64,000 nt of DNA from an uncultured Candidatus Saccharibacteria bacterium. GTDB taxonomy: Bacteria; Patescibacteriota; Minisyncoccia; Phycocordibacterales; PALSA-1337. The notes under the pieces are model-generated. The model ran no database searches and was not told where the DNA came from. It saw nothing but the letters and a program-made list of their open reading frames with translations. Positions 4,774 through 38,697 of this stretch are shown here, piece by piece. Within the stretch, counting starts at the first letter, position 1. The number at the start of each line of letters is the position of its first letter. The DNA is taken from contig CAZLCD010000003.1 of NCBI GenBank assembly GCA_964558375.1, positions 155 through 64,154 of the forward strand, given 5' to 3'. The position numbers and the translations under genes are program-made.

Positions 4774-5073
4774 ATGAGTACATATAATATTATTTCCCCA
4801 TCTTTAAGCGGTTTCCTATCAGACGATCACTTGTATTTCGAGGGTATAAAATGCCCGGTTGAGATATACAGAATAAGGGATTGCAAATATATCTCGAGAG
4901 ATTCTGTAGACGTTTTGGAAAAGTATTTTAACGATATACACAATCTTTTTCTAAAAAAGCTTTCAAAGTTTTCTACTTCCGAAAATTCCACAGATGAAGA
5001 AATCACAAAAATGCAGGCTCTTTTGCAAGAATTAGTAAAGGTTAAGGGGCTTATAGAAGGAAGGACGGATTAG
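4774..5073 (+). CDS. hypothetical protein (99 aa)
   Basis: Clean ORF between radC and murD on the same strand. No motif recognised. Confidence 0.3.
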   Translation: MSTYNIISPSLSGFLSDDHLYFEGIKCPVEIYRIRDCKYISRDSVDVLEKYFNDIHNLFLKKLSKFSTSENSTDEEITKMQALLQELVKVKGLIEGRTD

Positions 5074-6389
5074 TGTATAATATGTGGGTGAATTATAAAG
5101 ACTATTTCAAAGACAAGAAGATCGCTATAGTCGGCCTCGGTCCCCACGGTGAGATGTTGGCAGACATTAAGTTTCTATTGAAGAATAAGGCTCAAGTTTC
5201 GCTTTATGATATGCGAAGTGAAGAGAGGGTTAGTAAATATGTACTAGATCTACCTGTCGGCGGTTGTCGCAAATTCTCCTTTGGCAAAATAGATGGTGAC
5301 GAACTTCTTGATGAAGATATCATTATCCTTTCTCCAGAAGTTTCCAAGAAAAGCAATTTTCTAAAGAAAGCTAGTTCTGCCGGTAAGCAGATCGAATTTA
5401 TCGATACAATGTTTTTGAAATTGATACCTCCTATTACTTTGATCGGGGTGATAGGTTCATATGGTAAGAGTGTTGTTTCTCATCTTATATATTCTGTTTT
5501 AAAGAAGGCCTTTGCTTTGAACAAGGATCAAGGGCTTTTTTTCATTGATTCAGATCTAAGCGGAGGCACTTTAAATAATTTAAAAAAGATTAACAAAGGA
5601 GATGTAGTGATATGTCGCATCCCAGAGTATCTAATGGAGTACTATCATAAGCTTCGCATTAGCCCTCATGTAGCTGTCATAACTTCGGTAGTACCTTTCG
5701 ATATACTTGAATTTCAAACCTATAACAATTTTGTTATAGCTTCCGACGAGGTTATAGATGCCATTAAAAAACATTCAAAAAATCCTTCAAAAGCCAAGAT
5801 TTTGCGAACCTATGCAAACTCTATTCCAGCTGAATGGAATATGGCTATCAATAATATTCATGATAAAGAAAATGCGGCCTTGGTTTTACAAACTGCTGAG
5901 CTCTTCAAGGTTTCAACTGATATTGTACGTGAGGTTCTACAAAATTTTACTGGACTTAAGGGACATATCGAATTGGTTAAAAGGGTAGGCGGTGTTGAAT
6001 ATTATAATGATACAAATTCCGTGCATCCTTTATCAACTCTCAATGCTATCAAGACATTATCTTCCAATAAAAATTTAATCTTAATTATGGGTGGTGCATA
6101 TACTGGTTATGACTATGACCATTTGATCGATAAGATTTCAAATTATGTTTCAACTATTATTCTTTTGCCAGGTAGTGGTACGGTCGGCTTGCGCTCAAGG
6201 ATCGACGCCCTAAAAGACGTCACTGTCTTGCAGGCTCTAGATCTGGAGAAGGCTGTAGAGCTGGCCTGTGATAATGCTCAAAAGGGTGAAATAGTGCTGT
6301 TTAGCCCTAGTTTTGAGGCTGTGGGGGTGGATTTATCGAAGAAAGAGAGGGGAGAGAGGTTTGTGAGAGCTGTAAGGAGTTTGTCCTAA
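5073..6389 (+). CDS. murD: UDP-N-acetylmuramoyl-L-alanine--D-glutamate ligase (MurD-like Mur ligase)
   Basis: N-terminal Rossmann-like KKIAIVGLG. P-loop IGVIGSYGKSVVS (compare GSNGKST). C-terminal domain GLKGHIELV…NDTNSVHP…ILIMGG…VLFSPSFEAVGVDLSKKERGERF lines up with MurD GLPHRFE…NDSKATN…LLLGG…[20 protein letters not shown]. Start may be GTG 5073 or ATG 5082. Confidence 0.75.
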   Translation: MYNMWVNYKDYFKDKKIAIVGLGPHGEMLADIKFLLKNKAQVSLYDMRSEERVSKYVLDLPVGGCRKFSFGKIDGDELLDEDIIILSPEVSKKSNFLKKASSAGKQIEFIDTMFLKLIPPITLIGVIGSYGKSVVSHLIYSVLKKAFALNKDQGLFFIDSDLSGGTLNNLKKINKGDVVICRIPEYLMEYYHKLRISPHVAVITSVVPFDILEFQTYNNFVIASDEVIDAIKKHSKNPSKAKILRTYANSIPAEWNMAINNIHDKENAALVLQTAELFKVSTDIVREVLQNFTGLKGHIELVKRVGGVEYYNDTNSVHPLSTLNAIKTLSSNKNLILIMGGAYTGYDYDHLIDKISNYVSTIILLPGSGTVGLRSRIDALKDVTVLQALDLEKAVELACDNAQKGEIVLFSPSFEAVGVDLSKKERGERFVRAVRSLS

Positions 6390-6405: not shown

Positions 6406-7296
6406 TTAATCTCCACATATTATACAGACCACGGTGCCATCCCAAGATTTTCCTGTATAGACTGCTTGCATAAGTCCTGCAACTGACAGGGCACTATTTG
6501 TAGAAATAGAAATATCCGTATGCTTTTTTGTGATATCTTGCGCCGCTAGTATCTGTTCATTTGAAGCTATCCATGCACTTCCGCCTGTTTTTTCTATAAG
6601 CTTGATCAGTGTATCTTTTCTTTTGGCCATATGATCCACTATTGCATCTGCTATTGATTTTTCATCTATCACATCGCTATCTACAAATGCATTGGCAATC
6701 GGGTGACACGATGAAGTCTGCACTATATGCATCTCAACTTTTTTATTTTTCGAAATAAAGTTTTCTGCCAAAGCTTGCGCTGTTGTGCCGGATGATGTGC
6801 CTATAAAAACCGCCTGCAGATCCGCTATTTCCAAAAGTTCATCAGCAAGTGTCGAATAACCGATAAGTGCATTGTCATCGTTCGATTGTCTAAGAGCTTT
6901 GATCGATGTATCCTTTGTCTTTTGAAATAAAGTCTGAAGAGGCCTATCATGCATAGTGACATTTATATTTTCATTTCTAAAAGTCTCTAAATTATTTAAC
7001 TTTTTTTTAGAAATATGTTGACCAATAAGTATATCAAGTGAAATTTTCTTCTCTCCATTACTTTTTTTATTTTCTTGATTTACTTTGTGTATATGCTGCG
7101 CCGCAGCTAGAGCCGCATTGCCAGAAGAAGAGATGGCAAAGTGTTCAATACCTTGCTTTGAATACATATCTATCATCACGGGTATAGACCTACCTTTATG
7201 TGAACCGTATAGATGCAGATCTTCTCTTTTAAAGACTAGAGAGTCTATCTGCAATGCTTTTGCTAATTCGATATAAGGTTCTTGGGGGGTTATCAT
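6406..7296 (-). CDS. PLP-dependent enzyme, fold-type II (tryptophan-synthase-beta/threonine-synthase/ACC-deaminase superfamily)
   Basis: FKREDLHLYGSHKGRS matches the K(R/D)EDL…G(S/G)xK motif with the PLP lysine, plus a glycine-rich GTSSGTTAQ loop. The 5' end is trimmed to the internal Met (MITPQEPY) so it does not overlap the divergent neighbour. Confidence 0.55.
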   Translation of the reverse strand: MITPQEPYIELAKALQIDSLVFKREDLHLYGSHKGRSIPVMIDMYSKQGIEHFAISSSGNAALAAAQHIHKVNQENKKSNGEKKISLDILIGQHISKKKLNNLETFRNENINVTMHDRPLQTLFQKTKDTSIKALRQSNDDNALIGYSTLADELLEIADLQAVFIGTSSGTTAQALAENFISKNKKVEMHIVQTSSCHPIANAFVDSDVIDEKSIADAIVDHMAKRKDTLIKLIEKTGGSAWIASNEQILAAQDITKKHTDISISTNSALSVAGLMQAVYTGKSWDGTVVCIICGD

Positions 7297-7373
7297 GTTG
7301 ATATAATACAACGTTTTATGTACTATTAAAAGATAAGTTATTAATAAATATGTATTTTCAATCAATAAAAGTC

Positions 7374-7538
7374 ATGAAATCAAATTGTCCAGAATGTAAA
7401 AATGATATAGACCTTTCACGTTACCCATCTGTAGAAGAAGGTATGGTTATCGAATGTAATCATTGCGGTATTACCTTGCTTGCCAAGAATATAGCCGGCG
7501 ACACACTTTCTACTGAGATTGTTGACGAAGGGAAGTAA
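7374..7538 (+). CDS. small zinc-ribbon protein (CPxC…CxxC, 54 aa), LysW-like fold
   Basis: MKSNCPECKNDIDL…EGMVIECNHCGITL has the four-Cys spacing and size of LysW/ArgW carrier proteins, but the C-terminus (…EIVDEGK) lacks the EDWGE tail. Confidence 0.35.
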   Translation: MKSNCPECKNDIDLSRYPSVEEGMVIECNHCGITLLAKNIAGDTLSTEIVDEGK

Positions 7539-8877
7539 TAACTTCTTCTATCATTCCTCGGAAGCCATGAGAGCCTAAGAAAACTATAACTTCTCCGGAA
7601 GTGATGGCCTTTTTTACTAATTCTTTATCATCTTCAATATAGTAAGTGTTTGCATTTGTCTTTTTAATTATTTCAGCCAATCTATCTCCCTCTATAGGTT
7701 TGTTTTCCTCCTCGGATATTTTTAGTCTCGTTAATCGAGGAATAAGAACTATATCTGCATCTTTGAAAGCATTATCGTACATATGAGCTGAGCTTTCTTG
7801 TCTGCCACCGATATTTGGTTCATATATTGCTACTATCTTGTCTTTATAAACTTCTCTTATACTCTCTAAGACAGAAGAAGCTTTCTCTGGTGTGGGGGCA
7901 TGGCAATCAAAAACCGTGACTTTACCTTCTAATCTTTTTTCTAATCTCCTCTTTATGCCTTTAAAATTTTGAATTGCTTCTATGATAGTTTCTGGTTCAA
8001 TTCCTATTTCGGAAGCCATGGCGAAGCTGCCCGCTATATTTTCTGCGTTAAATTTACCTAGCATTGGCGAGTGGATTTTATAACTATTTCCTTTATTTTC
8101 TAAAATAAAATCAATGCCATCTCTCGTTTGGTTGGTTGAATGATAATAATAATCTGAATCAGATGTTTTTCCATAGGTAACAGCAATCTTTCCATTCAAA
8201 GCTTTTTTAATACCTTGATTATCATTACATATAACTATATTTTTAGTTTTTTCTATTAATTCTTCAAAAACTTTGAAATACGATTCTTCTGTAGGGTATA
8301 GGTCTGCATGATCCCAAGATACTGATGTTAATAGTAGGTGATTGGGGTGATAATAGACGAATTTTGGACGCTTATCCGAAATCGATACTTGATATTCATC
8401 ACCCTCTACTATGCTCCACTTTGAATCACTCAAGGCTCCGGTATTATGTGATAGAGATAATCCACCTGTGAAATAACTAGGGTCCATCTTTGCTTCAATC
8501 ATTATAAAAGATAATAGGGAAGAGATGGTAGTTTTGCCCCAAGTTCCGGTGACCACTATCGAGTTTTCTTTTATAAAATACTTTTCTAATATTTCCGGAT
8601 ACGAATATATTGGTATATTGTTTTCTTTGGCATACATTATCTCTGGATTCTTTGGACTAGTGCCTCCGCCGCCTATCATTACCATATCCGGCTTGCCTAT
8701 ATTTTCTGGATGCCAACCAGCGTAAAAGAGGATTCCATGTTTCTCCAATTCTGTAGAAACAGGAGGAAAGAAGCCTTTATCAGAACCAGTGACTTTCCAA
8801 CCCTTTTCCTTGAAAGCAATAGCAATAGCGCTGGTTGCTACACCGCAGATGCCGATGATGTGAAGGTGTTTGGACAT
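7510..8877 (-). CDS. mpl: Mur ligase, Mpl/MurC family (UDP-N-acetylmuramate:L-alanyl-gamma-D-glutamyl-meso-diaminopimelate ligase-like)
   Basis: N-terminus HLHIIGICGVATSAIA…VTGSDKGFFPPVSTELEKHGI closely resembles Mpl (HILGICGTFMGG…VTGSDANVYPPMSTLLEKQGI). P-loop VVTGTWGKTT. EGDEYQVSISDKRPKFVYYHPNHLLLTSVSWDHADLY matches Mpl [37 protein letters not shown]. Confidence 0.75.
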   Translation of the reverse strand: MSKHLHIIGICGVATSAIAIAFKEKGWKVTGSDKGFFPPVSTELEKHGILFYAGWHPENIGKPDMVMIGGGGTSPKNPEIMYAKENNIPIYSYPEILEKYFIKENSIVVTGTWGKTTISSLLSFIMIEAKMDPSYFTGGLSLSHNTGALSDSKWSIVEGDEYQVSISDKRPKFVYYHPNHLLLTSVSWDHADLYPTEESYFKVFEELIEKTKNIVICNDNQGIKKALNGKIAVTYGKTSDSDYYYHSTNQTRDGIDFILENKGNSYKIHSPMLGKFNAENIAGSFAMASEIGIEPETIIEAIQNFKGIKRRLEKRLEGKVTVFDCHAPTPEKASSVLESIREVYKDKIVAIYEPNIGGRQESSAHMYDNAFKDADIVLIPRLTRLKISEEENKPIEGDRLAEIIKKTNANTYYIEDDKELVKKAITSGEVIVFLGSHGFRGMIEEVITSLRQQSQ

Positions 8878-8924: not shown

Positions 8925-9227
8925 CTACCCCAACTGAACCTCTTTATTAAAAGCTTTCGCTATGCGATATAGCGTTCCAAGAGAGAAGCTATGTTTTCCA
9001 CTCTCAATACGAGCAATTACAGATTGAGGCATCTTAGCCTCTATTGCTAAGGCTTTCTGTGTAAGTTTATTCTCTATTCGCATTTTTTTTATCTGATAGG
9101 CAAGCTTAAGGCGAGCCATCTCCTCATTGTAATTTTTGACAAAGGATTTGGATTTGAAATATTTACCAAATGACTCCTCAAATGAGTACATCTTAATAGT
9201 TTTATTGTTAACTTTTATTTCTTTCAT
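8925..9227 (-). CDS. XRE-family helix-turn-helix protein (HigA-like antitoxin)
   Basis: HTH LTQKALAIEAKMPQSVIARIESGKHSFSLGTLYRIAKAF. Trimmed to internal Met (MKEIKV…) 11 nt after the upstream partner's stop. The longer 9281 start is also possible. Confidence 0.6.
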   Translation of the reverse strand: MKEIKVNNKTIKMYSFEESFGKYFKSKSFVKNYNEEMARLKLAYQIKKMRIENKLTQKALAIEAKMPQSVIARIESGKHSFSLGTLYRIAKAFNKEVQLG

Positions 9228-9237
9228 TGATTTTGGG

Positions 9238-9555
9238 TTATTGTTTGTTAATAATTTTATATATTTTCTCAGCATACTCAATTTCTGCCCTAGGAGCTTT
9301 TTTGGTTTTCTTTATAAAAATTCTAATGAGATAAATGATACATACCTCAATGAAAAAGATAATTCTATATCTGCCCACAATTAACTCTTTTACTTTTCCT
9401 CTCAATGTCTTTATGTATAAAACACTAAAGTAAGCATTGCATAAAGCCTCAACCTCACTCGTTATCTTCACCCTATCTTTCTCAGGTAGGGAATCAATAA
9501 AATCTTTCACCTCTTCAAGTACAATTAACTTGTAAACATGATTTTCTTTATTCAT
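9238..9555 (-). CDS. RelE/HigB-like toxin (phage Gp49-like, DUF891-type)
   Basis: About 105 aa. VKDFIDSLPEKDRVKI…GKVKELIVGRYRIIFF matches the Gp49/HigB pattern (…LPxKDRAKI…ELRxxxYRILYFF). Directly followed by an XRE HTH gene, the classic HigB-HigA order. Confidence 0.5.
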   Translation of the reverse strand: MNKENHVYKLIVLEEVKDFIDSLPEKDRVKITSEVEALCNAYFSVLYIKTLRGKVKELIVGRYRIIFFIEVCIIYLIRIFIKKTKKAPRAEIEYAEKIYKIINKQ

Positions 9556-9742: not shown

Positions 9743-10375
9743 TTAAAATCTCAGTAACGTCTTCACCCCCTCCATATCCCCACTCCACACCTTCCCATCA
9801 AACCATTCCATTCCTGAAAATTGTAGTTTATAGGTATCTGTAGGTCTTTGAAGTGAACCTAGATATACATACTGTAAACCATTAGCTTGAGCATATTCTA
9901 TTGCCTTAATCATCATAATCAACCCCATGTCTTTTGAAGCTTTTTCTAAATCATAGAAGGGATATGAATAGTGAAGAATAGAATTATTTTTGTAGCAGAT
10001 AGCGTAACCAAAATCCGAAAAAGAAAAGAGGGTATTGAAGTTATGCTCCTCAGTCAGTAGAACTTTTATTTTATTAACCGAGAAAGACCCACCAGCTTTT
10101 TTGTCATAAAAGTCTTTAGCGAACTTGCCTAGTTGCCAATCATATTTTAAATAGGGAATTGTATTTTCTTTAATAACAATTTCCTCTCCCTTTTTAAGAA
10201 TCCTTCGATTCTCACTTGATAATGAAAACTTTTTTAAATCTATTCGTACACTTCTTGTCTGATGCATTACTCCTTTATCTATACGAGTAAATACAAAACC
10301 TTCATTGTATAGACGAGAGATATTTTCTGGTGAATGATCCGTAATTTTTTCCTGAGCCCAATTTAAATAATTCAT
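9743..10375 (-). CDS. arginyl/leucyl-tRNA--protein transferase-like protein (ATE/Bpt C-terminal domain, GNAT-like)
   Basis: C-terminal LQYVYLGSLQRPTDTYKLQFSGMEWFDGKVW resembles the ATE_C signature (YLYLGYYI..C.KM.YK..F.P.E.L…W). Trimmed to MNYLNWAQ so it abuts the mraY stop at 10378. The eukaryotic N-terminal CGYC motif is not seen. Confidence 0.45.
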   Translation of the reverse strand: MNYLNWAQEKITDHSPENISRLYNEGFVFTRIDKGVMHQTRSVRIDLKKFSLSSENRRILKKGEEIVIKENTIPYLKYDWQLGKFAKDFYDKKAGGSFSVNKIKVLLTEEHNFNTLFSFSDFGYAICYKNNSILHYSYPFYDLEKASKDMGLIMMIKAIEYAQANGLQYVYLGSLQRPTDTYKLQFSGMEWFDGKVWSGDMEGVKTLLRF

Positions 10376-10377
10376 AA

Positions 10378-11505
10378 TTAATGAAGAGCTAGCCAAACAC
10401 CAAAGATTACGAAGACAAAGTGAATAATCCAAAAGCGCATAATGGTCTTCTCTTCACTCCAACCTTTGATTTCAAAATGATGATGTATCGGTGCCATTTT
10501 AAATATTCTGCGACCAAGGATGTATTTGCCGGCGATCTGGATTATGACAGTTAGAGCCTCCACATAAAATAAAAATCCCAAAAAGAAAATCGAACCGATC
10601 TCGCCAATGGCGATAGTGTTGACGGCAAAGAGCGCGCCAAGTCCGAGAGATCCCACGTCTCCCATCATAAATCTGGCGGGCTTTATATTGAAATATGTAT
10701 AAGCGATAAGGGCACCAACGACTGTGGAGTTCAGTATTGCAAGCTCTCCAAAGCCGTTGGTCCAACTGAGAAGGGTAAGTGCACTAAAAGAAAAAATAAG
10801 CATACCTCCAGCGAGACCGTCCATACCGTCGGCGATATTTACAGCGTTCGCAGTAAACATCACAATGAGGATGATGATGGGGATTATGAGCCAGCCAGCG
10901 TATATTTCGTAATTAAAAGGGAAATAAATATAATGCCAAGCTGTTCCTAGTTTGTCATATATCCACCATGCGGTGATACTTCCTGCAGCAAACTGTAATA
11001 GAAGCTTTTCGTGAACATGTACACCCTTGTATGTTCTCGAACCTATCCACACCGAAGTTCTTTTAAAAATTGACCAAGGCAAGGTGATGATATACCAAAT
11101 CCTCATCTTGAGATCACGATGCACACTTATCAATTTGAAAATCTGAGAAAGCTTTCGGGAGCGACGTTCTGAGCCGAAAATATTTAAAAGATCGTCGATC
11201 GCTCCAAGCATTGCAGAGAACATCATCACTCCTATAGGCACCCAAGTATAACCTCTAGACCAGTTCAAAAAATATGTAATGATAGCCACGGTCACTATGA
11301 TGAGCAAGCCACCCATGACAGGTGTATTTTCTTTGCCTTTCTGAGAATCAATGATACTGAGCTCATTCTTTGCGCCTTTGAAGATACGAAAGTGGTAAAG
11401 TCTATTTATAAGAAAAGGTGACCAAGCAAAAGCCAAGACACAAGAAAGCAGTGTAAAACCAAGTATAAAGGCTAAATCGGCTGTACCTTCAAGTATACTT
11501 ATCAT
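10378..11505 (-). CDS. mraY: phospho-N-acetylmuramoyl-pentapeptide-transferase
   Basis: Motifs NAVNIADGMDGLAGG, MGDVGSLGLGA and PIHHHFE, with 10 predicted TM helices over 375 aa. Confidence 0.9.
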   Translation of the reverse strand: MISILEGTADLAFILGFTLLSCVLAFAWSPFLINRLYHFRIFKGAKNELSIIDSQKGKENTPVMGGLLIIVTVAIITYFLNWSRGYTWVPIGVMMFSAMLGAIDDLLNIFGSERRSRKLSQIFKLISVHRDLKMRIWYIITLPWSIFKRTSVWIGSRTYKGVHVHEKLLLQFAAGSITAWWIYDKLGTAWHYIYFPFNYEIYAGWLIIPIIILIVMFTANAVNIADGMDGLAGGMLIFSFSALTLLSWTNGFGELAILNSTVVGALIAYTYFNIKPARFMMGDVGSLGLGALFAVNTIAIGEIGSIFFLGFLFYVEALTVIIQIAGKYILGRRIFKMAPIHHHFEIKGWSEEKTIMRFWIIHFVFVIFGVWLALH

Positions 11506-11563: not shown

Positions 11564-12340
11564 ATGAATACTAAGTTTATTAGCGACAAATCAAGAGAGA
11601 TTATTGATCAATACAAAAACTTTTCTATAGGTCAGGCCAGCTGTTCCATACCGTATTTTAATAATCGCACCCTAGGTACCAAAGGAGCATTGCGCGCTGA
11701 AGTTGGAAAGGGTAGCCCCTCAGATATATCTGAAGAAATCGAGCATCTTTCTTTAAAAAATAAAATAAAATTAAACACTCTGACATCGGAAGAATTGAAA
11801 AAACTGCTTGTGGATAACAATATCGGTATCGATTGCTCTGGGCTTGCTTATTATATTTTAAATGAAGAAAGTTTATCCAGAAAAAAGGGTGCTTTGGCTA
11901 GTCATATTAATTTTGTAAATGCTGGTGGATTGTGGAGAATTTTCCGAGCCAAGTTTATGCCTGAGAAAAATATAGATGTTTTGACTTTGGCTCACAATAA
12001 AAACAGTAAAGTCATTGCCCTTAAAGAAATAGAGCCGGGAGATATTGTGACTATGGTTAATGGAGAAAATAATGGGGAGCGCAATCATATTTTGATTATC
12101 AATCAAATCGAGTATCAAAATTTCTTACCTATAACCCTTCACTATGTACATTCTGTAGCTTGGCCTACTGACGGTGAATATGGTCATGGAATTCACGAGG
12201 GTAAAATAGAAATATTAGATTTGGAAAAGAATTTAATTGATCAAAGATGGATTGAAAATGGAAAAGAGGGTGAAGAAAACTACACTCATATGAGAGCTAA
12301 AAAATCTACAACGGAATTAAGAAGACTTTTCTGGTTCTAG
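11564..12340 (+). CDS. NlpC/P60-family (papain-like) peptidase-like protein
   Basis: Catalytic-Cys context IGIDCSGLAYYIL and downstream His context GDIVTMV…GERNHILIINQI are arranged as in NlpC/P60/CHAP cell-wall hydrolases. Confidence 0.45.
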   Translation: MNTKFISDKSREIIDQYKNFSIGQASCSIPYFNNRTLGTKGALRAEVGKGSPSDISEEIEHLSLKNKIKLNTLTSEELKKLLVDNNIGIDCSGLAYYILNEESLSRKKGALASHINFVNAGGLWRIFRAKFMPEKNIDVLTLAHNKNSKVIALKEIEPGDIVTMVNGENNGERNHILIINQIEYQNFLPITLHYVHSVAWPTDGEYGHGIHEGKIEILDLEKNLIDQRWIENGKEGEENYTHMRAKKSTTELRRLFWF

Positions 12341-13540
12341 ATCTGGTTCTAGATTATAAAGTAAATTCAAAATCTCCTTGCCTCGACTATTGAGCTTGTT
12401 GTGAGTTTCCATGATGCCTCGAGAACTTCTGATTCTTATAAAATCCAAATTGGGCTTGAAGTTTGGATATTTTATTACTTCATAACCTGCTTCTATAAGC
12501 TTTTTGTCTTCCAAATCTTTGGATGTGGATGTAACCCTCTGCACTATTTGTGCACCATCGTTTATGGGTATAATTTTCATTTCACCTGCATTATTCAAGA
12601 GCGCATCAATATGTATTTCAAATATTGTATTACCTTCCAAACCAATCTTTTTCTGTAAATGAGATTCATAAGTTGTCGAGGCTGGCTGCCTAGCATTTAT
12701 TTCGATCAAGTGTATCTCATCTCTTTCTTCATCAAGGATTACGTCTATGCCAAAAAGGCCTTTCCATCCAGATATGCGCATTTTTTCTGCGATTTTATGG
12801 GCGATTGCATCTATTTTTCCTAGCTGTGCCTCAGTCAAAATAGTATGAGGTAGTGCCCAATCATTACCTATTGTACTAAAAACATTTTCTGTAAAAGGGA
12901 GCATGCCGGTAATCTGATAGCTCAAATTGCCCAGAACAGCGTCCGAGCCGGAAACTACTATGTTCATAGTGAACATCGGTCCTTTTATAAAGTCACTAAT
13001 TCTCGCTTCTCGATGAGGGAATTTGTCTTGCAAAAATTTCAATTCCTCCGCATTTCTTATAAGCACCGTACCTTCTCCGGTGTGTCCATGTGACCATTGC
13101 AAAATGAATGGCTTTTTCTGCCACATCACATCCTTGGTAAAAGTAATAGAGTGAGGCGGAAGCAAAGATGACAATTCTCCTAGCCATTTTACTTGAGAAA
13201 TTTTGTTCTCCACAATATCTGAAAGCTCGGCGCTAGGGTTTAGTAATTTCCAATTTTTATTTTTACAAAATTCCTCAATGTGTATAGTGTTTTTGAAAAC
13301 CAAAACATGGGCATTGTGCTTGGGTACAAGTGCTGCCGTTTCTGGTAAGGTCAATAATTCATATGTGTCGAGTAGTGAAGGGGATTCTACTATATGAACA
13401 TTATCAGGATATTTTTCTTTTATGGTAATGGAGTAGGGAGTTTTGTTGGTTAAAATAAAATAATTATCCACAGGCTCTTGCGCCAAGGCTCGCTCGATTT
13501 CTCTTGTGATGTATAGGATGTTTGGAGATTTTGATGACAT
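12317..13540 (-). CDS. ATP-grasp family ligase (carboxylate-amine ligase)
   Basis: KKPFILQWSHGHTGEGTVLIRNAEE (KP..GS.G.GV loop) and GIDVILDEERDEIHLIEINARQPAST (Mg/ATP-binding E-x-N), with a pre-ATP-grasp N-terminal domain. Confidence 0.6.
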   Translation of the reverse strand: MSSKSPNILYITREIERALAQEPVDNYFILTNKTPYSITIKEKYPDNVHIVESPSLLDTYELLTLPETAALVPKHNAHVLVFKNTIHIEEFCKNKNWKLLNPSAELSDIVENKISQVKWLGELSSLLPPHSITFTKDVMWQKKPFILQWSHGHTGEGTVLIRNAEELKFLQDKFPHREARISDFIKGPMFTMNIVVSGSDAVLGNLSYQITGMLPFTENVFSTIGNDWALPHTILTEAQLGKIDAIAHKIAEKMRISGWKGLFGIDVILDEERDEIHLIEINARQPASTTYESHLQKKIGLEGNTIFEIHIDALLNNAGEMKIIPINDGAQIVQRVTSTSKDLEDKKLIEAGYEVIKYPNFKPNLDFIRIRSSRGIMETHNKLNSRGKEILNLLYNLEPDLEPEKSS

Positions 13541-14307: not shown

Positions 14308-15471
14308 ATGAAAATAGGGGCTGTAAGTTTTATCGTCATAGGAATATTTGCACTAAGTACAGCTATCGGTTTTTTTGTCCCATTTAAATATGATACTAAA
14401 GATGACTATATAAATGATTCTCTAAGCCTCAATCCTTCAAGTGTGATCGAAGCTGTGACCCTACCTCCACCTTTCAAAGTCACTCATATCGAAACTCCTA
14501 CAGCAGTGAAGGCTTTGTATATGTCTAGCTGGGTAGCGGGTAATGAAAAATTGAGAAGTAATCTTCTGAATATCATCGAGTCTTCAGAGTTGAATTCTGT
14601 GGTTATAGATATAAAAGATTATTCTGGGAAAATTAGCTTTCGTGTTCAAAATGAAAAATTGAAAGAATTTAATTCTACAGAGAATAGAATTTCTGATATC
14701 AAAGAATTTATCGGTAGGCTTCATGATAAAGGGATATATGTCATAGGTCGCATATCAGTTTTTCAAGATTCTTTTCTTGTAAAGACTCATCCAGAATATG
14801 CAGTGAAGAATAAAGCCGGCGAAGTCTGGAAAGATTATAAAGGAGTAAGTTGGCTCGATGCTGGAGCTCGAGGTGTGTGGGATTATATAGCCCTGATCGG
14901 TGACGAGGCTTATTCTGTAGGCTTCGATGAATTAAATTTCGATTATATTCGTTTTCCTTCCGATGGAAATATGCTCGATATTAGTTATCCTTTCAGTCAA
15001 GGTAAAGTTAAATCTCTTGCACTCAAAGAATTCTTTGCTTTTCTCGATAATTATTTTCGTCCAAAGAACATTCCTATATCGGCCGATCTATTTGGTATGA
15101 CTACTTCCAATAGCGATGACTTGGGTATCGGACAAATCCTAGAACATGCTTTAGCACACTTCGACTTCGTCGCGCCTATGGTCTATCCATCTCACTATCC
15201 TAAAAATTTTAATGGTTACACAAAGCCTGCAGAAAAACCTTATGAAGTTATTTCTTATGCAATGTCGAGAGGGGTGCAGAAAGCAGTTAATGCAAGTACT
15301 ACTCCTCTGAAACTTCGACCTTGGATTCAAGACTTTAGTATCGGCGGAACCATCTATACTCCAGAAATGGTACGTGCGCAGATCACTGCAACTTATGATG
15401 TAGGTCTTACAAGTTGGATGCTTTGGAACGCTTCGAATGTATACACAGTCTCTGCTCTTGACACAAAGTAA
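14308..15471 (+). CDS. membrane-anchored TIM-barrel glycoside-hydrolase-like protein (GHL/DUF4015-like)
   Basis: N-terminal TM helix, then KALYMSSWVAGNE…LNSVVIDIKDYSGKISF…GIYVIGRISVFQD…NFDYIRFP, a pattern recalled from putative glycoside hydrolase-like families. Call made by resemblance only. Confidence 0.35.
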   Translation: MKIGAVSFIVIGIFALSTAIGFFVPFKYDTKDDYINDSLSLNPSSVIEAVTLPPPFKVTHIETPTAVKALYMSSWVAGNEKLRSNLLNIIESSELNSVVIDIKDYSGKISFRVQNEKLKEFNSTENRISDIKEFIGRLHDKGIYVIGRISVFQDSFLVKTHPEYAVKNKAGEVWKDYKGVSWLDAGARGVWDYIALIGDEAYSVGFDELNFDYIRFPSDGNMLDISYPFSQGKVKSLALKEFFAFLDNYFRPKNIPISADLFGMTTSNSDDLGIGQILEHALAHFDFVAPMVYPSHYPKNFNGYTKPAEKPYEVISYAMSRGVQKAVNASTTPLKLRPWIQDFSIGGTIYTPEMVRAQITATYDVGLTSWMLWNASNVYTVSALDTK

Positions 15472-15853: not shown

Positions 15854-17593
15854 ATGAACGAAGAAAGAGTTACATATTTTGGTCAAACAGACACTAGAAA
15901 TAAAAAGGTAAATTTTGGTATTAAAGCAAAAGATCGAACAAAACATGTTTATGTAATAGGAAAGACAGGTATGGGAAAGTCGACCTTACTTGAAAACATG
16001 GCAGTGCAGGATATTAAAAATGGTGAGGGAATTGCTTTTATAGATCCTCACGGCAAGACAGCTGAGCTACTTTTGGAATATGTGCCAGAGCATAGAATGA
16101 AGGATGTGGTGTACTTTGCGCCATTCGATACAGATTTCCCAGTTTCTTTTAATGTACTTGAAAGTGTAGATCCAGACAAAAGGCATTTGGTGGTTTCTGG
16201 ACTTATGAGTACATTTAAGAAAATCTGGCAAGATGCTTGGTCGGCTAGAATGGAATATATTTTGACAAATACCTTACTGGCACTTCTTGAATATCCAGAA
16301 GCAACCCTTTTGGGAGTGAATAGAATGCTCTCTGATAAGGCTTTTAGGAATCAAGTAGTAGCTTGTGTGACCGATTCTTCTGTGAAGGCTTTCTGGACTC
16401 AAGAATTTGCAAATTATACAGAGAGAATGGCCGCAGAAGCTGTGCCTGCTATTCAAAACAAGATCGGGCAGTTTACTGCCAATGCTCTGATAAGAAATAT
16501 GATAGGGCAACCAAAATCCTCTTTTGATATTCGAAAAATGATGGATGAAAGTAAGATCTTCATTATTAACCTTTCAAAAGGGCGCATCGGTGAGTCCAAT
16601 GCCAATCTCTTGGGTGGTATGCTTATTACAAAGATCTATCTTGCAGCTCTTTCTCGTGCGGACATTCCAGATAGGGTGTTGAAAACTTTGCCAAACTTCT
16701 ATCTTTTCGTTGACGAGTTCCAATCTTTCGCAAATGAAAGTTTTGCGGATATTCTCTCTGAGGCTAGAAAATACAAGTTGAACTTAACTATGGCTCATCA
16801 GTATATTGAGCAAATGGAAGAAGAGGTTAGGGCAGCTGTCTTTGGTAACGTGGGAACTATGATTGTCTTTCGTGTAGGAGCTTTTGATGCAGAAGTTTTG
16901 GAAAAAGAATTTGCGCCACAATTTACTGCCGAAGATATTGTTAATCTTGGAATATTCCAAATCTATTTAAAATTAATGATTGATGGTATCAGTTCTTCAC
17001 CTTTTTCTGCTACGACTCTGCCTCCGATTGCAAAACCTGAGACTTCTAGTATGGATAAAGTGATAGAGAATTCTCGTGCTCAATATTCAAGACCTAGAGT
17101 TGATGTCGAGAAAAAGATCGATGAGTGGATGGCGCCGATGAAAGCTCAAGCTCCTACTCCAAGGCAAGGGCAATCTGGAACATCTACTCCATCAAAGCCT
17201 ATGCCACCAGTCACTCCTTCTCATACTCCTTCACCAATACCACAAAAGCCGGCTGAACCAGTTGTACCAATTCACCAGCATCCTCCTCAATCTGCGCCGG
17301 TTCAAGCTCCTACGCCAACTCCTTCTCATACATTTTCCAAACCTCCAGAGTCACCACAATCATCACAGCAACATCATTCAATTCCTTTACAATCACTAGC
17401 TCAAAAAGATTTTAAAAAAATCCCAGATCCTAAAAAGGTTAATGAATTGAAAGATGCCTTAGCTTCTATACTCTCACAACAAAAACCCAAAACAGAACCT
17501 AAAATTACAACCCCACTTCAAACAAATTCAGTACATCCAAAAACGAATGAAGTCCCCGAAGATGTACTTCGCAATGTTCTTAAGGTAGAGTAG
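15854..17593 (+). CDS. soluble TraD/TraG/VirD4-family-like P-loop ATPase (type IV secretion coupling-protein-like) with Pro/Ser/Thr/Gln-rich C-terminal tail
   Basis: Walker A VIGKTGMGKST. Walker B with a TraM-recognition-like block FYLFVDEFQSFANESFADILSEARKYKLNLTMAHQYIEQM. No N-terminal TM segments. C-terminal ~130 aa is low-complexity (PTPRQGQSGTSTPSKPMPPVTPSHTPSPIPQKPAEPVVP…). Confidence 0.45.
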   Translation: MNEERVTYFGQTDTRNKKVNFGIKAKDRTKHVYVIGKTGMGKSTLLENMAVQDIKNGEGIAFIDPHGKTAELLLEYVPEHRMKDVVYFAPFDTDFPVSFNVLESVDPDKRHLVVSGLMSTFKKIWQDAWSARMEYILTNTLLALLEYPEATLLGVNRMLSDKAFRNQVVACVTDSSVKAFWTQEFANYTERMAAEAVPAIQNKIGQFTANALIRNMIGQPKSSFDIRKMMDESKIFIINLSKGRIGESNANLLGGMLITKIYLAALSRADIPDRVLKTLPNFYLFVDEFQSFANESFADILSEARKYKLNLTMAHQYIEQMEEEVRAAVFGNVGTMIVFRVGAFDAEVLEKEFAPQFTAEDIVNLGIFQIYLKLMIDGISSSPFSATTLPPIAKPETSSMDKVIENSRAQYSRPRVDVEKKIDEWMAPMKAQAPTPRQGQSGTSTPSKPMPPVTPSHTPSPIPQKPAEPVVPIHQHPPQSAPVQAPTPTPSHTFSKPPESPQSSQQHHSIPLQSLAQKDFKKIPDPKKVNELKDALASILSQQKPKTEPKITTPLQTNSVHPKTNEVPEDVLRNVLKVE

Positions 17594-34707: not shown

Positions 34708-35895
34708 ATGACTACAATTCTGCATATAACTAGAATGAACTTCCTTTCAAACAAGGCTCATGTGTATACAACTACAAAAACATGTGAAGCTTTGGCTATG
34801 CAGGAGAATACCAAAGTCATACTTCTAAGTTCTGATAACAGTTTGATTTCAAATGATGCTAAGGATAGTTTCTTTAAAAAACACGATATATTAAAAAGAT
34901 TTGATATTGTTTCGCTAAACTCATTCTCGAATAAACTAAAGGGAAGTAAGATTCGTCCAGTAAACTGGATGGAAACAATTTCAGTTAATATATCCATATT
35001 GAATTATGTCCTTTTTAACTCAAAGAAATTTGATATTTTGTACTATAGAGACTGCTCACTAATCCTACCAATCCTAGCTTCAAAATATATTCTAAGTAAA
35101 CCCATATTCATAGAACTTCATGCTGTACTTCATAAGAAACACGGACAGTTTTCAATTAACTTCTTCTCAAAGATATCGAATGGTCTAATTACAATAAGTT
35201 ATAGTTTGAAAGAATACTATAAAAAGATTAATTCAAAAATAATGGTTGCTTTCTGTGCTGCTGCAGAACCAGAAAGATTTGCTTTGATTAAAGAAAGTAA
35301 TGGAGAGTTAAGAAATATATTAAACCTACCAAAAGACAAGACAATACTCATGTATTCTGGAAATCTGTATAAAACAGGAAACTATGATTCATATGGTATA
35401 GAAGATATTGTAAATGCCATGCCTTTTGTAAGTAATTCATTCGTGTTTGTTGGAGTGGGAAAAAAAGGAAATGAGACAAAGGAACATGAGGAACTGGCTT
35501 TAAGGCTTGGAATACAGAATAAAATAATATTTCTTCCTTGGGTGAGTAAACAAAAAGTATATGAATATTGGAAAGCTTCTGATATGCTCCTGCTTCCAGC
35601 TGCGGGAGCACAGATAGGTAATTCTCCAACAAAAATGTTCGAATACCTTGCTGCGGAAAAACCAATAATCTCTGCCCGCACTAAAGCTATTGAAGAAGTG
35701 CTTGAAGATAAAAAGAATGCTCTATTAATTTCAAACTATAAAGATCCACAAGAGTGGGCACGAGCAATAGAAAGTATGGCTAGTGATGTTGTTTTGCGTG
35801 ATAATCTAATAAAACAAGCTATGCTTGATAGCAAGAGATATACATGGGAGAATCGAGGTCTTGAGATATTGAAATTCATTAATAAAAGTCTATGA
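34708..35895 (+). CDS. glycosyltransferase family 4
   Basis: GT-B C-terminal domain: …LLLPAAGAQIGNSPTKMFEYLAAEKPIISARTKAIEEVLEDKKNALLI. Confidence 0.6.
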   Translation: MTTILHITRMNFLSNKAHVYTTTKTCEALAMQENTKVILLSSDNSLISNDAKDSFFKKHDILKRFDIVSLNSFSNKLKGSKIRPVNWMETISVNISILNYVLFNSKKFDILYYRDCSLILPILASKYILSKPIFIELHAVLHKKHGQFSINFFSKISNGLITISYSLKEYYKKINSKIMVAFCAAAEPERFALIKESNGELRNILNLPKDKTILMYSGNLYKTGNYDSYGIEDIVNAMPFVSNSFVFVGVGKKGNETKEHEELALRLGIQNKIIFLPWVSKQKVYEYWKASDMLLLPAAGAQIGNSPTKMFEYLAAEKPIISARTKAIEEVLEDKKNALLISNYKDPQEWARAIESMASDVVLRDNLIKQAMLDSKRYTWENRGLEILKFINKSL

Positions 35896-36818
35896 ATCTA
35901 AAAGGTATAATATATTACATACTTCACTACACTGGATTTAACTATATCTACAGTCTTTTCCTCAACAAAAAACTCTTCATTGTTATGTATCACAGTATAG
36001 GGAACAAAGAGAATGCGGATCGACTATTAAATCATCTATACAGTCACATATCAGTAGACTCTAAGAAGTTTGAAGAACATATTGAATACCTTAAAAAAAG
36101 TGGTCATACATTCATATCGTTTAAAGATATATCTAGAATAAAGTCTGATAACATAAAGAAACCAACTATCATATATTTCGATGATGGATTCAAAGATGTT
36201 CTTGAAAATGCTCTGCCAATACTCGAAAAAAATAATATCCCAGCTACAATTTTTGTAGTTACAGGTATTCTAGATAAGACTGAGATGCTATGGACTATTC
36301 TATACAAAGAAGCTTTAACAAAACAGAATATTTCTCTAGAAAAACAAGCTGAAATGATAGAGAAAATAAAGACTGGTACAGAACAAGATAGAATAAATGT
36401 AATGAATCAATTTTCTTTAAAAGACTATCAATACCTTTTTGATATATTCCTTTCTTGGGATGATCTGAGAAATATATCTAAAAGAAATGTTCACACAGCT
36501 TCTCATAGTGTTTCTCATATGCGAATGAATGAGCTATCAGAATCAGACTTCAAAAAAGAAATAGCTGTTTCTAAGAATCGCACTGAGGAAGAATTGAGAG
36601 AAAAAGCTATATCATTCTCATTCCCATATGGTAGAGGAAGTGAAGAAATGGTTAAGGAGTTGTATAAAACTGGATATTCATATGTTGTATCGAAGGGTTG
36701 TGGAATAAATGAAGTAAATGAGACTAAAAATATATATCTAAAGAACATTTCACCTAAACCAAATGATTCTCTAATGATGTTTAAGTTAAGACTATACTCT
36801 CTAAATATAAACAAATGA
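35892..36818 (+). CDS. polysaccharide deacetylase (NodB-homology domain, CE4)
   Basis: IIYFDDGFKDVLENALPILEKNNIPATIFVVTG (DD metal-binding motif 1) and TASHSVSHMRM (H-x-x-H-like motif 2). Confidence 0.7.
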   Translation: MNLKGIIYYILHYTGFNYIYSLFLNKKLFIVMYHSIGNKENADRLLNHLYSHISVDSKKFEEHIEYLKKSGHTFISFKDISRIKSDNIKKPTIIYFDDGFKDVLENALPILEKNNIPATIFVVTGILDKTEMLWTILYKEALTKQNISLEKQAEMIEKIKTGTEQDRINVMNQFSLKDYQYLFDIFLSWDDLRNISKRNVHTASHSVSHMRMNELSESDFKKEIAVSKNRTEEELREKAISFSFPYGRGSEEMVKELYKTGYSYVVSKGCGINEVNETKNIYLKNISPKPNDSLMMFKLRLYSLNINK

Positions 36819-37579
36819 TTACTGTAAAGAATCATCTTTTCCTAAAAACAGCCACTGTAATTTTTGAGGACGATCAAATAACTCCTCTGTTTAAAACTGG
36901 AAAATATTCTTCAATAGTTGCTGTGTCATACAAGAAGATGGATATTCCAAAGTTTGTTATGTACTCAAAACCAACTTTGTTAATAGATTTAACTAGAACC
37001 GAAGATGATATAATGGCAGGGTTTAATGATACTACTCGTAATGAAATACGAAAGACATTCAAGGATAATAGACTTAAGTTTGTAATAAAAGATTCTCCAG
37101 ACAAAGAATCCTATGAGATGTATAGAGAATTTGAATATTCTCAAGGAAGAGCCCCTGTAAGTATGAATGTTCTAAAGGAATCATTCTTTCTAGGTATTTC
37201 ACTCGACGATAAGTTAATTTCTGGTATATATGTGACTAAGAGTGATCCATATCTAAGAATTAGATCAATCTTCTCTAAGAGATTGAAGGTGGAAGATAAA
37301 GAAATATATAAACTAATAGCATATTCAACAAGAAGATTGATATGGGAAGCTTGTTCTTGGGGAAAGAAAGAGGGATATATTTCTCTCGATATGGCCTCTG
37401 TAAATATAAACAATCCAAAGACTGAAAGCATCGCTAGATTTAAGATGTCTTTTGGTAAAGATCTTGTAGATGAATATACTTATATATATAAATCTCCATT
37501 ATTTTCTTTTCTAGAGAAAATGGTTAGAATTAAGCTTCTCTTGAGAAAAGCTATATTCAAAATCAGAGAACTCTTTTAA
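36815..37579 (+). CDS. FemAB-family-like GNAT-fold transferase (aminoacyl-tRNA-dependent transferase-like)
   Basis: TTRNEIRKTFKDNRLKFVIK resembles the FemAB KTR.NIRKAEK.GV block. SIARFKMSFGKDLVDEYTY resembles the FemAB ..RFK..FGG block. Only 254 aa, so a single-domain version. Confidence 0.4.
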   Translation: MITVKNHLFLKTATVIFEDDQITPLFKTGKYSSIVAVSYKKMDIPKFVMYSKPTLLIDLTRTEDDIMAGFNDTTRNEIRKTFKDNRLKFVIKDSPDKESYEMYREFEYSQGRAPVSMNVLKESFFLGISLDDKLISGIYVTKSDPYLRIRSIFSKRLKVEDKEIYKLIAYSTRRLIWEACSWGKKEGYISLDMASVNINNPKTESIARFKMSFGKDLVDEYTYIYKSPLFSFLEKMVRIKLLLRKAIFKIRELF

Positions 37580-38697
37580 TGAAAATACTCATTCTCACAA
37601 ACTATCTCGGTAATCATGGAGGACTAGGAAGATACTCCTCTCAAGTAGTTAAAGCTTCCTCAGACCTTTCTTTGGATGTTAAGGTTTTAACTGAGGCTAA
37701 AGTGTCGACTTCTCCCATAGAACTCAATGTATTAAAACCAGTTTTTAATCAAAAGAAATGGAGGTTAATGTGGAATATAATTTTCAATATCATATCTGTT
37801 AGATGGTACAGTCGTGGGGTCGATGTAATCCACGCTCATGATGGTTGGCCATATGGATTCTATGCTTGGTTTGCTGTGTTGGGGACAAAAAAGAAACTGT
37901 ATATAACTGGTATTGGAACATATACAATCGCCCCACTAAAGGAAACGATACGAGGAATACTTCTACGTATGGCATACAAAAGAACTTCTAATATATTTTG
38001 TATAAGTGAATACGTGAGAGATAGGTTGTTAAAACTATGCCCACAAGCAAAAACATCTGTGGTGTTCATGGGAACAACTAGACTACCTGAAGTTTCAAAA
38101 GAAAAGATAGAAGAGAGTCGAATAAAGTTTGGATTAGAGAATACAAACCCCATCTTTCTAACTGTAGGTGATATAAAAAAGAGAAAGGGTCAATTAGATA
38201 CTCTGAAATCACTTAATTTGATAAAGAGTAAATATCCTAATTTTAAATATGTGATGATTGGAGATGATGCAGATACTAACTACATTAATTTAATAAAAAA
38301 TTTTGCTAAGGAGAATAATATTGAGAAAAATGTCTTAATAATCTCAAAGATGTATGATGATCTAGTACTGTCCTCTATGTATTCAATGTGTGATATCTTT
38401 ATGCTCAATTCTAATAATGATAGTGATCATTTTGAAGGCTTCGGACTGGTATTTCTAGAGGCGGCACAGTTTGGAAAACCAGTAATTGGTAGTAAAAATT
38501 GCGGTATTGAAAATGCCTTTAAGAACTGCTACAATGGGTTTTTAACAGAGCAGGGGAATCATAAGGATATAAGTGAGAAAGTGGAGAAGATTCTATCGGA
38601 CAAAGTAGGGGTTTTTGGTAAGAATTCGATGGAATTTTACAAAGGTTTCTCTTGGGAACATACCGCAAAGGCTTATGTAGATAACTACAAAAAATAA
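37579..38697 (+). CDS. glycosyltransferase family 4
   Basis: DHFEGFGLVFLEAAQFGKPVIGSKNCGIENAFKNCYNGFL is a classic E-x7-E GT4 motif. Confidence 0.7.
   Translation: MKILILTNYLGNHGGLGRYSSQVVKASSDLSLDVKVLTEAKVSTSPIELNVLKPVFNQKKWRLMWNIIFNIISVRWYSRGVDVIHAHDGWPYGFYAWFAVLGTKKKLYITGIGTYTIAPLKETIRGILLRMAYKRTSNIFCISEYVRDRLLKLCPQAKTSVVFMGTTRLPEVSKEKIEESRIKFGLENTNPIFLTVGDIKKRKGQLDTLKSLNLIKSKYPNFKYVMIGDDADTNYINLIKNFAKENNIEKNVLIISKMYDDLVLSSMYSMCDIFMLNSNNDSDHFEGFGLVFLEAAQFGKPVIGSKNCGIENAFKNCYNGFLTEQGNHKDISEKVEKILSDKVGVFGKNSMEFYKGFSWEHTAKAYVDNYKK

Follow-up and report, generated by a model that had tools for sequence, protein, structure and literature searches.

Two predicted aminoacyl-tRNA-dependent transferases in a peptidoglycan operon and a surface-glycan island of an uncultured Patescibacteria bacterium

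Which acceptors would be served by two putative aminoacyl-tRNA-dependent transferases encoded in one 64,000-nt stretch of contig CAZLCD010000003.1, from an uncultured bacterium of the Patescibacteria (CPR)? This whole stretch, hereafter the window, carried ORF-A immediately downstream of mraY (translocase gene of peptidoglycan synthesis) and ORF-B inside a glycan island. The original prediction, made from the letters of the window, had proposed that ORF-A was a Bpt-type enzyme aminoacylating lipid-linked peptidoglycan precursors and that ORF-B was a FemAB-like enzyme aminoacylating a sugar. Both ORFs were found as described, ORF-A with the quoted ATE_C-like block LQYVYLGSLQRPTDTYKLQFSGMEWFDGKVW (residues 167-197) and ORF-B with blocks of the KTR.NIRK…RFK..FG type (DTTRNEIRK and RFKMSFG):

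9743..10375, minus strand: ORF-A, Cys-less ATE_C-only aminoacyl-tRNA-transferase-like protein of 210 aa (ATG at 10375, stop included at 9743)
36815..37579, plus strand: ORF-B, compact FemX/Sba18-like transferase of 254 aa with invariant F209-K210

Profile searches and predicted folds supported the placement of both proteins in the ATE/Bpt/Fem GNAT-like superfamily. To our knowledge, peptidoglycan branching from tRNA has been described for no enzymes other than those of the Fem type, in Firmicutes and relatives. The sequence evidence suggested that amino acids borrowed from tRNA decorate both the wall and the surface glycan of this tiny uncultured bacterium; the combined mechanism, in which ORF-A would act on a peptidoglycan precursor and ORF-B on an amino sugar, each with an aminoacyl-tRNA donor, was judged to stand about an even chance.

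The start of ORF-A was assigned to the ATG at 10375, and an upstream TTG at 10432 was ruled out, because the ORF-A homologues all opened with M-x-Y-L. Pfam ATE_C (PF04377) scored ORF-A at 26.4 bits (cut-off 25; E 1.1e-5), a marginal and partial match confined to profile positions 58-120 of 122. ATE_C was matched by 32/32 close and 20/20 broader family members at E<=1 (best 3e-10), and no match to ATE_N (at E<=1), FemAB, or Leu_Phe_trans was found among these 32 close and 20 broader members. Seven NCBIfam Bpt/arginyltransferase models aligned with ORF-A residues ~40-198 at E 2e-11 to 8.5e-3, all far under their cut-offs: the scores were 40-43 bits against cut-offs of 170-267, the top two being 43.5 bits for a model with an equivalog cut-off of 267 and 42.2 bits for one with a cut-off of 170. 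ORF-A had a single cysteine (C127), and the broad family had no conserved one; the metal site of K. lactis Ate1 is made up of Cys23/26/95/96 (PMC9351520), and thus the C4 metal site of Ate1 was absent from ORF-A. With neither ATE_N nor the zinc-finger cysteines, and with scores that fell well short of those set for the Bpt models, ORF-A was therefore not a bona fide Bpt, and the Bpt-type identity originally proposed had to be given up: ORF-A was a small, stripped-down, Cys-less and ATE_C-only relative, belonging among the GNAT-like aminoacyl-tRNA transferases to the ATE/Bpt branch, and not a Bpt orthologue.

PDB sequence searches with the ORF-A protein and its profile gave chance matches only; the link to ATE1 needed fold comparison. 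The AF2 (AlphaFold) model of ORF-A, built from 32 homologues, had a pLDDT of 93 and a pTM of 0.90; Foldseek against the PDB placed human ATE1 first (E 1.4e-7, TMq 0.69), followed by yeast and K. lactis ATE1 and then by MprF aminoacyl-phosphatidylglycerol synthase domains, FemX, and Sba18, so that the top solved fold matches were aminoacyl-tRNA-using enzymes throughout. The alignment of 32 family sequences contained 60 invariant columns, and Y182-K183, the YLG motif, R44, S54, and R58 were unchanged throughout the family, the branches at 24-36% identity included. Y182-K183 fell within the ATE_C-aligned stretch, and residues 53-62 formed the basic helix SSENRRILKK. K. lactis Ate1 requires Tyr303 and Lys304, the latter corresponding to FemX Lys305, and binds tRNA through the basic alpha3 helix (PMC9351520). 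By profile and modelled fold, ORF-A is a predicted member of the GNAT-like aminoacyl-tRNA transferase superfamily.

ORF-A was located in a conserved block with the order ATP-grasp, NlpC/P60-like, mraY, ATE-like, ligase, LysW-like zinc ribbon, PLP enzyme, and MurD-like, the neighbours of ORF-A in the window being as follows:

12317..13540, minus strand: ATP-grasp_3 ligase, weakly like the pseudomurein 'Ddl_archaea' ATP-grasp
11564..12340, plus strand: NlpC/P60-like protein (sub-threshold Pfam match), between the ATP-grasp gene and mraY
10378..11505, minus strand: mraY, phospho-MurNAc-pentapeptide translocase (Pfam Glycos_transf_4; NCBIfam mraY 176 bits)
7510..8877, minus strand: MurC/Mpl-type Mur ligase, downstream of ORF-A
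7350..7538, plus strand: LysW-like zinc-ribbon protein of 62 aa, mean identity 66% over relatives
6406..7296, minus strand: PLP-dependent enzyme, PALP fold type II
5073..6389, plus strand: MurD-like ligase, end of the conserved block

The two ligases that had been claimed for the mraY neighbourhood were thus present (MurD-like at 5073-6389 and MurC/Mpl-type at 7510-8877), and the mraY stop codon TAA was followed by 2 nt (TT) and then by the ATG of ORF-A. Gene order was compared over 81 loci (the best 80 genome loci by ORF-A similarity plus one metagenome look-up locus), spanning relatives at 51-72% identity only. In this set, mraY lay on the same strand upstream of the ORF-A homologue in 81/81 loci (median gap ~18 nt; 54 gaps <=50 nt), and the Mpl/MurC-type ligase lay on the same strand downstream in 73/81 (<100 nt away in 39), where 31 gaps exceeded 300 nt and thus indicated insertions. 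The mraY linkage was conserved in relatives as anticipated, and the synteny gave no sign of an unrelated housekeeping gene. The mraY, ATE-like, and Mpl/MurC-type ligase genes constituted a conserved operon in Paceibacteria-type Patescibacteria, with ORF-A translationally coupled to mraY. The mean identity over the loci was 60% for ORF-A, 58% for the MurC-like, and 49% for the MurD-like ligase, a comparison biased by the choice of loci for ORF-A similarity.

Judged from these residues and this operon, ORF-A would most likely use aminoacyl-tRNA to aminoacylate a peptidoglycan precursor. The acceptor end of the aminoacyl-tRNA would be held by the basic helix SSENRRILKK together with nearby arginines, Tyr182-Lys183 would stabilise the tetrahedral intermediate like Tyr303-Lys304 of Ate1 and Phe304-Lys305 of FemX, and the aminoacyl group would be transferred onto a free amine that a peptidoglycan precursor presents at the cytoplasmic face; the likeliest acceptor would be the diamino acid at position 3, through its side-chain amine, on UDP-MurNAc-peptide or on lipid I/II, yielding a branch or bridge residue. 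ORF-A would thus parallel FemX/MurM in function, having been recruited from the ATE and not the Fem lineage. FemX/FemA/MurM shared with both ORFs the aminoacyl-tRNA-dependent GNAT-like fold (by predicted model for the ORFs) and the aromatic-Lys pair, and with ORF-A the genomic link to peptidoglycan precursor synthesis (W. viridescens FemX uses the nucleotide precursor), but ORF-A belonged to the ATE branch and gave no FemAB match. In the literature searched, no paper tied ATE/Bpt-like genes to peptidoglycan or to Patescibacteria.

ORF-B alone gave no Pfam (including FemAB PF02388), NCBIfam, or PDB single-sequence match. Its family profile (37 members) matched Sbb17 (E 2e-5) and Sba18 (E 1e-4), with FKMSFG aligned with FKLGFGG, and Pfam FemAB was weakly matched by 11/37 relatives (best E 1e-3). 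F209-K210 was invariant in the family and aligned with the FK of Sbb17/Sba18, the aromatic-Lys pair represented by F304-K305 in FemX. With the AF2 model of ORF-B (pLDDT 93), Foldseek gave Sba18/Sbb17 with streptothrisamine as the best matches (E 4e-12 to 1e-11, TMq 0.67-0.68), W. viridescens FemX as the second-best (E 3.5e-11, TMq 0.68), and also MprF and FemA; the 25 top structural matches, comprising Sba18/Sbb17, FemX, MprF, and FemA, were all aminoacyl-tRNA-dependent. The FemAB-like assignment was thus upheld at the level of fold and family profile (Sbb17/Sba18 and FemX) but not by a Pfam FemAB match of ORF-B itself, and ORF-B is best modelled as a compact FemX/Sba18-type member of the GNAT-like aminoacyl-tRNA transferase superfamily whose gene is coupled to that of a NodB-type deacetylase (see below). 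Sba18/Sbb17 were the closest solved relatives of ORF-B by profile and fold, at an identity of ~15% only, while FemX differed from ORF-B in length (335 vs 254 aa, ORF-B being ~80 residues shorter) and in setting, since ORF-B lay in a polysaccharide island and not in a peptidoglycan cluster. MprF synthase domains, PacB, VlmA, and DhpH belonged to the same superfamily as both ORFs, and MprF domains were among the top fold matches of both; however, the ORFs had no membrane or flippase domain, and the lipid or antibiotic contexts of MprF and the natural-product transferases differed from the peptidoglycan and glycan contexts of the window genes. The profile-profile comparison of the ORF-A and ORF-B families was not significant (probability 0.09), though it paired YKLQF with FKMSF, and it was not used as evidence.

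The glycan island enclosing ORF-B (~17.6-52.6 kb; Wzx/Wzy-type, 35 kb) contained many GT4/GT1/GT2 glycosyltransferase genes together with genes for NDP-sugar dehydratases/epimerases, methyltransferases, and AsnB-like, Wzx-like, and Wzy_C proteins. The genes around ORF-B were the following:

33825-34706, plus strand: 293-aa weakly APH-like kinase, conserved in the ORF-B module of relatives
34708..35895, plus strand: GT1/GT4 glycosyltransferase upstream of the deacetylase, conserved module member
35892..36818, plus strand: NodB-type polysaccharide deacetylase, its end overlapping the ORF-B start by 4 nt
37579..38697, plus strand: GT4 glycosyltransferase, its start overlapping the ORF-B stop by 1 nt

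Upstream sequence was long enough for the comparison in 62 metagenome and look-up loci, and a NodB-type deacetylase gene lay immediately upstream of the ORF-B homologue, on the same strand, in 42/62; by our count, this pairing occurred in nearly all loci at >=31% identity, and it was absent from more distant Fem-like proteins. The relatives of ORF-B kept a glycosyltransferase/deacetylase/Wzx/Wzy context, not a peptidoglycan gene context. Because the deacetylase stood immediately upstream in 42/62 loci, the gene pairing suggests deacetylation and then aminoacylation of an amino sugar: the NodB-type deacetylase would unmask the amine of an N-acetylated amino sugar carried by a nucleotide- or lipid-linked intermediate, and ORF-B would then acylate it with an amino acid from aminoacyl-tRNA, by the chemistry of Orf11/Sba18 and the logic of NodB followed by NodA. 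In Nod-factor synthesis, NodB and NodA deacetylate and then re-acylate the GlcNAc amine. The deacetylase-ORF-B pair would resemble them in having a NodB-family deacetylase followed by an N-acyl transferase on the freed amine, but NodA has another fold and a fatty-acyl donor, whereas ORF-B is Fem-like and its presumed donor is aminoacyl-tRNA. Orf11, which is homologous to Sba18/Sbb17, converts streptothrisamine to glycylthricin with Gly-tRNA, the acceptor being the amine of an amino sugar (PMC12945691). Sugar aminoacylation from tRNA, originally regarded as a non-canonical use of this enzyme family, thus has a precedent; ORF-B, taken by analogy to share the amino-sugar amine acceptor of Orf11-type enzymes, would be a new context and not new chemistry, because Orf11, Sba18, and Sbb17 come from Streptomyces antibiotic pathways while ORF-B sits in a Wzx/Wzy-type surface-glycan island beside a NodB-type deacetylase. 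If this holds, the conserved deacetylase and Fem-like pair offers a concrete candidate route to N-aminoacyl amino sugars in surface glycans.

The distribution of ORF-A was followed beyond the 81 loci. The ORF-A family comprised 1569 clusters in the 90% identity database, the full-database profile search with this family returned 397 representatives only, and the scan of 185,579 species genomes from bacteria and archaea found the gene in at least 552; the ORF-B family had 84 homologues. Both original observations were far beyond chance, and family conservation was strong. One distant branch, made up of proteins of 230-270 aa, was likewise ATE_C-only, and its profile matched 2120 clusters, including those of Verrucomicrobia, Myxococcales, and Pseudomonas purpurea. 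Two distant relatives were connected with the ligase: (i) P0243, from a Dojkabacteria genome, was encoded directly upstream of an Mpl/MurC-type ligase gene followed by PgeF, MurB, MurA, mraZ, and rsmH, and (ii) P0352 (645 aa) was a fusion in which residues 12-197 matched ORF-A (E 7e-21) and residues 219-645 matched the window ligase (E 9e-38), the halves being joined by the Pro/Ser-rich linker LPSPSVPSPSVPSPSTPSISLTPP. P0352 was encoded between a Mur ligase gene and murA in the dcw cluster of a groundwater CPR bacterium and was present in three assemblies (L082 8001-9938, L083, and L084). Over larger evolutionary distance, the persistent partner of the ATE-like gene was the cytoplasmic Mpl/MurC-type ligase rather than MraY. 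This tied the ORF-A family to peptidoglycan precursor synthesis; the preference for a lipid-linked acceptor was lost by the same observation, such an acceptor being no better supported than a nucleotide-linked or free-peptide one.

Two further ATE_C-only genes had other surroundings: (i) in a verrucomicrobial genome (L176/L177 6695-9484), the gene followed that for alanine racemase and preceded that for an MBL-fold hydrolase, and (ii) in Pseudomonas purpurea (L178 7278-16822), it lay between methyltransferase and MFS transporter genes beside a large nonribosomal peptide synthetase (NRPS) gene, a member that recalls PacB. These contexts point to small-molecule or peptide acceptors over protein N-termini. 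An apparent alanine-racemase::ATE-like fusion (P0410, contig L175) was rejected as probably produced by the assembly: in a relative at 81-90% identity the two genes were separate, 115 nt apart, and L175 was rich in split genes, with Ala_racemase_N and Ala_racemase_C in separate ORFs, a split Dus, and a split Glyco_hydro_44, as is typical of an indel-rich assembly; of P0410, only the racemase adjacency was retained. In another protein, P0326 (809 aa), the ATE-like domain was fused to PPDK_N and PEP-utilizers domains, i.e., a PEP-synthase/phosphotransferase-like module.

A number of points weigh against the combined mechanism. For ORF-A, the ATE_C score (26.4 vs 25 bits, over the last half of the model) was marginal, and PDB sequence searches stayed at chance level; the complete mraY linkage was counted in relatives selected for ORF-A similarity; the ligase linkage leaves the choice of acceptor precursor unspecified, and the MurC step itself offers no amine; the genuine ATE-like::ligase fusion was found in one cluster only; and, with members beside alanine racemase or in an NRPS cluster, the family was not exclusively a peptidoglycan one. 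For ORF-B, there was no Pfam match, acyl-CoA-using GNAT-fold relatives occurred lower in the fold list, and the deacetylase could act either in the cytoplasm or outside it.

The ORF-B points bear on the alternative that ORF-B is an acyl-CoA N-acyltransferase re-acylating the deacetylated amino sugar with a non-acetyl group, or else a generic FemAB-like GNAT protein of exopolysaccharide clusters. It would account for the missing FemAB match and for the tandem-GNAT acyl-CoA enzymes down the fold list, and NodB-NodA would be a precedent in which the acyl donor is not tRNA; however, all 25 top structural matches depended on aminoacyl-tRNA, the family profile matched Sbb17 over the catalytic FK..FGG motif, and F209-K210 was invariant. 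This alternative was considered rather unlikely, and aminoacylation of an amino sugar was preferred for ORF-B.

For ORF-A, the best-surviving alternative turned on the linked ligase. The window ligase (7510-8877) scored higher with NCBIfam murC (257 bits) than with mpl (201 bits), both scores being under the models' own cut-offs. Das et al. described a loop, (S/T)AFFDKRSK preceded by Tyr182, as unique to Mpl and absent from MurC-F (PMC3060825). An Mpl-type loop was found in the window ligase (DEYqvsiSDKRpKF), in P0352 (DEAFHGFDKKAKF), and in the Dojkabacteria ligase (L092, 1947-3362; DEFVSAFNYDMNAKF), and these loops needed no gap in alignment to Mpl 3hn7 but one of 7 residues in alignment to MurC 6cau. 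The ATE-like-linked Mur ligases also carried a YPP/FPP motif near the N-terminus, and all of them scored higher with NCBIfam as MurC than as Mpl; they may represent a class of CPR ligases that is intermediate between the two or has both functions. ORF-A might be imagined to pass an amino acid from aminoacyl-tRNA to an unattached amino acid or a scavenged peptide at its alpha-amine, e.g., to a fragment containing an N-terminal D-Glu, giving a peptide which the Mpl-type ligase would load onto UDP-MurNAc. Such a role would fit the Mpl-type loop in ATE-like-linked ligases of three separate lineages, the distant-branch fusion and adjacency involving the ligase and not MraY, the native acylation of alpha-amines of N-terminal Asp/Glu by ATE1 and Bpt, and the NlpC/P60-like protein within the conserved block; it was nevertheless rated improbable, given that NCBIfam favoured murC over mpl, that the MurD-like ligase in the same block makes the canonical stepwise route available, and that the position of the acidic-residue-binding Arg80 of Ate1 (GFRRSG-type motif) was GFVFTR in ORF-A, as read by motif and not by an alignment tool. 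The wider proposal that the ATE-type transferase and the Mpl-type ligase would work as a pair, in one lineage as a fused polypeptide, assembling or repairing the stem peptide off the sugar and then loading UDP-MurNAc, was thought a little less probable still; if true, the ATE-Mpl pairing would supply the wall precursor by a route that depends in part on tRNA.

ORF-A could instead be the Patescibacteria Bpt enzyme of an N-degron pathway, transferring Leu/Arg onto N-terminal Asp/Glu of proteins, its place in the operon being incidental. The named relatives of ORF-A were Bpt/ATE models only, JGI labelled many homologues as arginyl-tRNA--protein-N-Asp/Glu arginylyltransferase, and Bpt/ATE1 resembled ORF-A in the ATE_C GNAT core with HYxYPFYD, YLG, and YK motifs, in the catalytic Tyr-Lys pair, and in the basic helix after the ATE_N/ATE_C junction, ATE1 being also the top fold match. 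ORF-A nevertheless differed from Bpt/ATE1 (i) in its size of ~210 aa without an ATE_N match or the C4 zinc-finger cysteines, (ii) in scoring four- to six-fold under the Bpt equivalog cut-offs, (iii) in its peptidoglycan precursor operon, as opposed to an N-degron context, and (iv) in the apparent loss of the acidic-residue-binding Arg, inferred from the motif reading above. Adjacency to peptidoglycan genes, moreover, was kept over distant lineages and accompanied by one ligase fusion, the family member in the NRPS cluster pointed to small-molecule acceptors, and no clpS, clpA, or aat stood out among the genes called in the inspected loci, where no systematic search for them was made. A protein N-terminus was hence held to be a quite improbable acceptor.

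The last alternative, a tRNA-independent ORF-A serving as an acyl-CoA GNAT enzyme (e.g., acetylating the precursor amine) or as a non-catalytic ligase partner, would suit the GNAT-like fold and the weak secondary Acetyltransf_6 and Acetyltransf_1 matches in part of the family, but it was deemed highly improbable against top structural neighbours that all use aminoacyl-tRNA, an invariant Tyr-Lys pair typical of tRNA-dependent transferases, and 60 invariant columns among 32 sequences, which argue for catalysis.

If ORF-A indeed aminoacylates a peptidoglycan precursor, wall aminoacylation would have a second, independent origin, in the lineage from which the eukaryotic arginyltransferase came, and a branched or otherwise modified wall would be predicted in a huge uncultured group, for which no muropeptide data turned up in the literature searched. 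A testable function would also be proposed for a broad, hitherto uncharacterised Cys-less ATE_C-only family (>2000 clusters, including Verrucomicrobia) that is auto-annotated as protein arginyltransferase.

Several minor features of the conserved block were recorded. The LysW-like, ATP-grasp, and PLP trio, on sequence resemblance, recalls amino-group-carrier-protein systems or a substitute D-amino-acid/dipeptide supply; no PDB sequence relative was found for either the ATP-grasp or the PALP neighbour, and a second Mur-ligase paralogue, looked for in the window, was not found. The NlpC/P60-like gene was present in most related loci, where its orientation relative to mraY flipped. The spacer between ORF-A and the ligase was occupied in the window by a gene pair lying outside the conserved operon (G+C 32%):

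8925..9555, minus strand: toxin-antitoxin-like pair, Gp49/HigB-like (9238-9555) and HTH_3 (8925-9281), between ORF-A and the ligase

In relatives, this spacer held other cargo (e.g., a Bro-N gene) or was empty, and it looks like an insertion hot spot within the operon. The peptidoglycan block was flanked by two genes, which were the same neighbours in its relatives:

14308-15471, plus strand: DUF4015 protein
15854-17593, plus strand: VirD4/TraG-like type IV coupling protein

The window had a low G+C content of 35%, and its three tRNA genes (two Met and one Asp) lay at 62-64 kb, far from both ORF loci and without special marks. The nearest relatives of the window genes came from contigs labelled as Paceibacteria/Taylorbacteria type, within the Patescibacteria. 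The labels 'Gammaproteobacteria', 'Arenimonas', and 'Saccharibacteria' on some related contigs were distrusted, the Patescibacteria-type block being present there; contigs L035, L055-L057, L060, L073, and L076, labelled 'uncultured Gammaproteobacteria' or 'Arenimonas', shared the Patescibacteria-type mraY-ATE-like-ligase block, and these two labels probably reflect mis-binning or generic naming. The glycan island further contained two proteins with little or no domain assignment:

38702-40132, plus strand: 476-aa protein with a C-terminal SIS domain only
40851-42056, plus strand: 401-aa protein with no Pfam match

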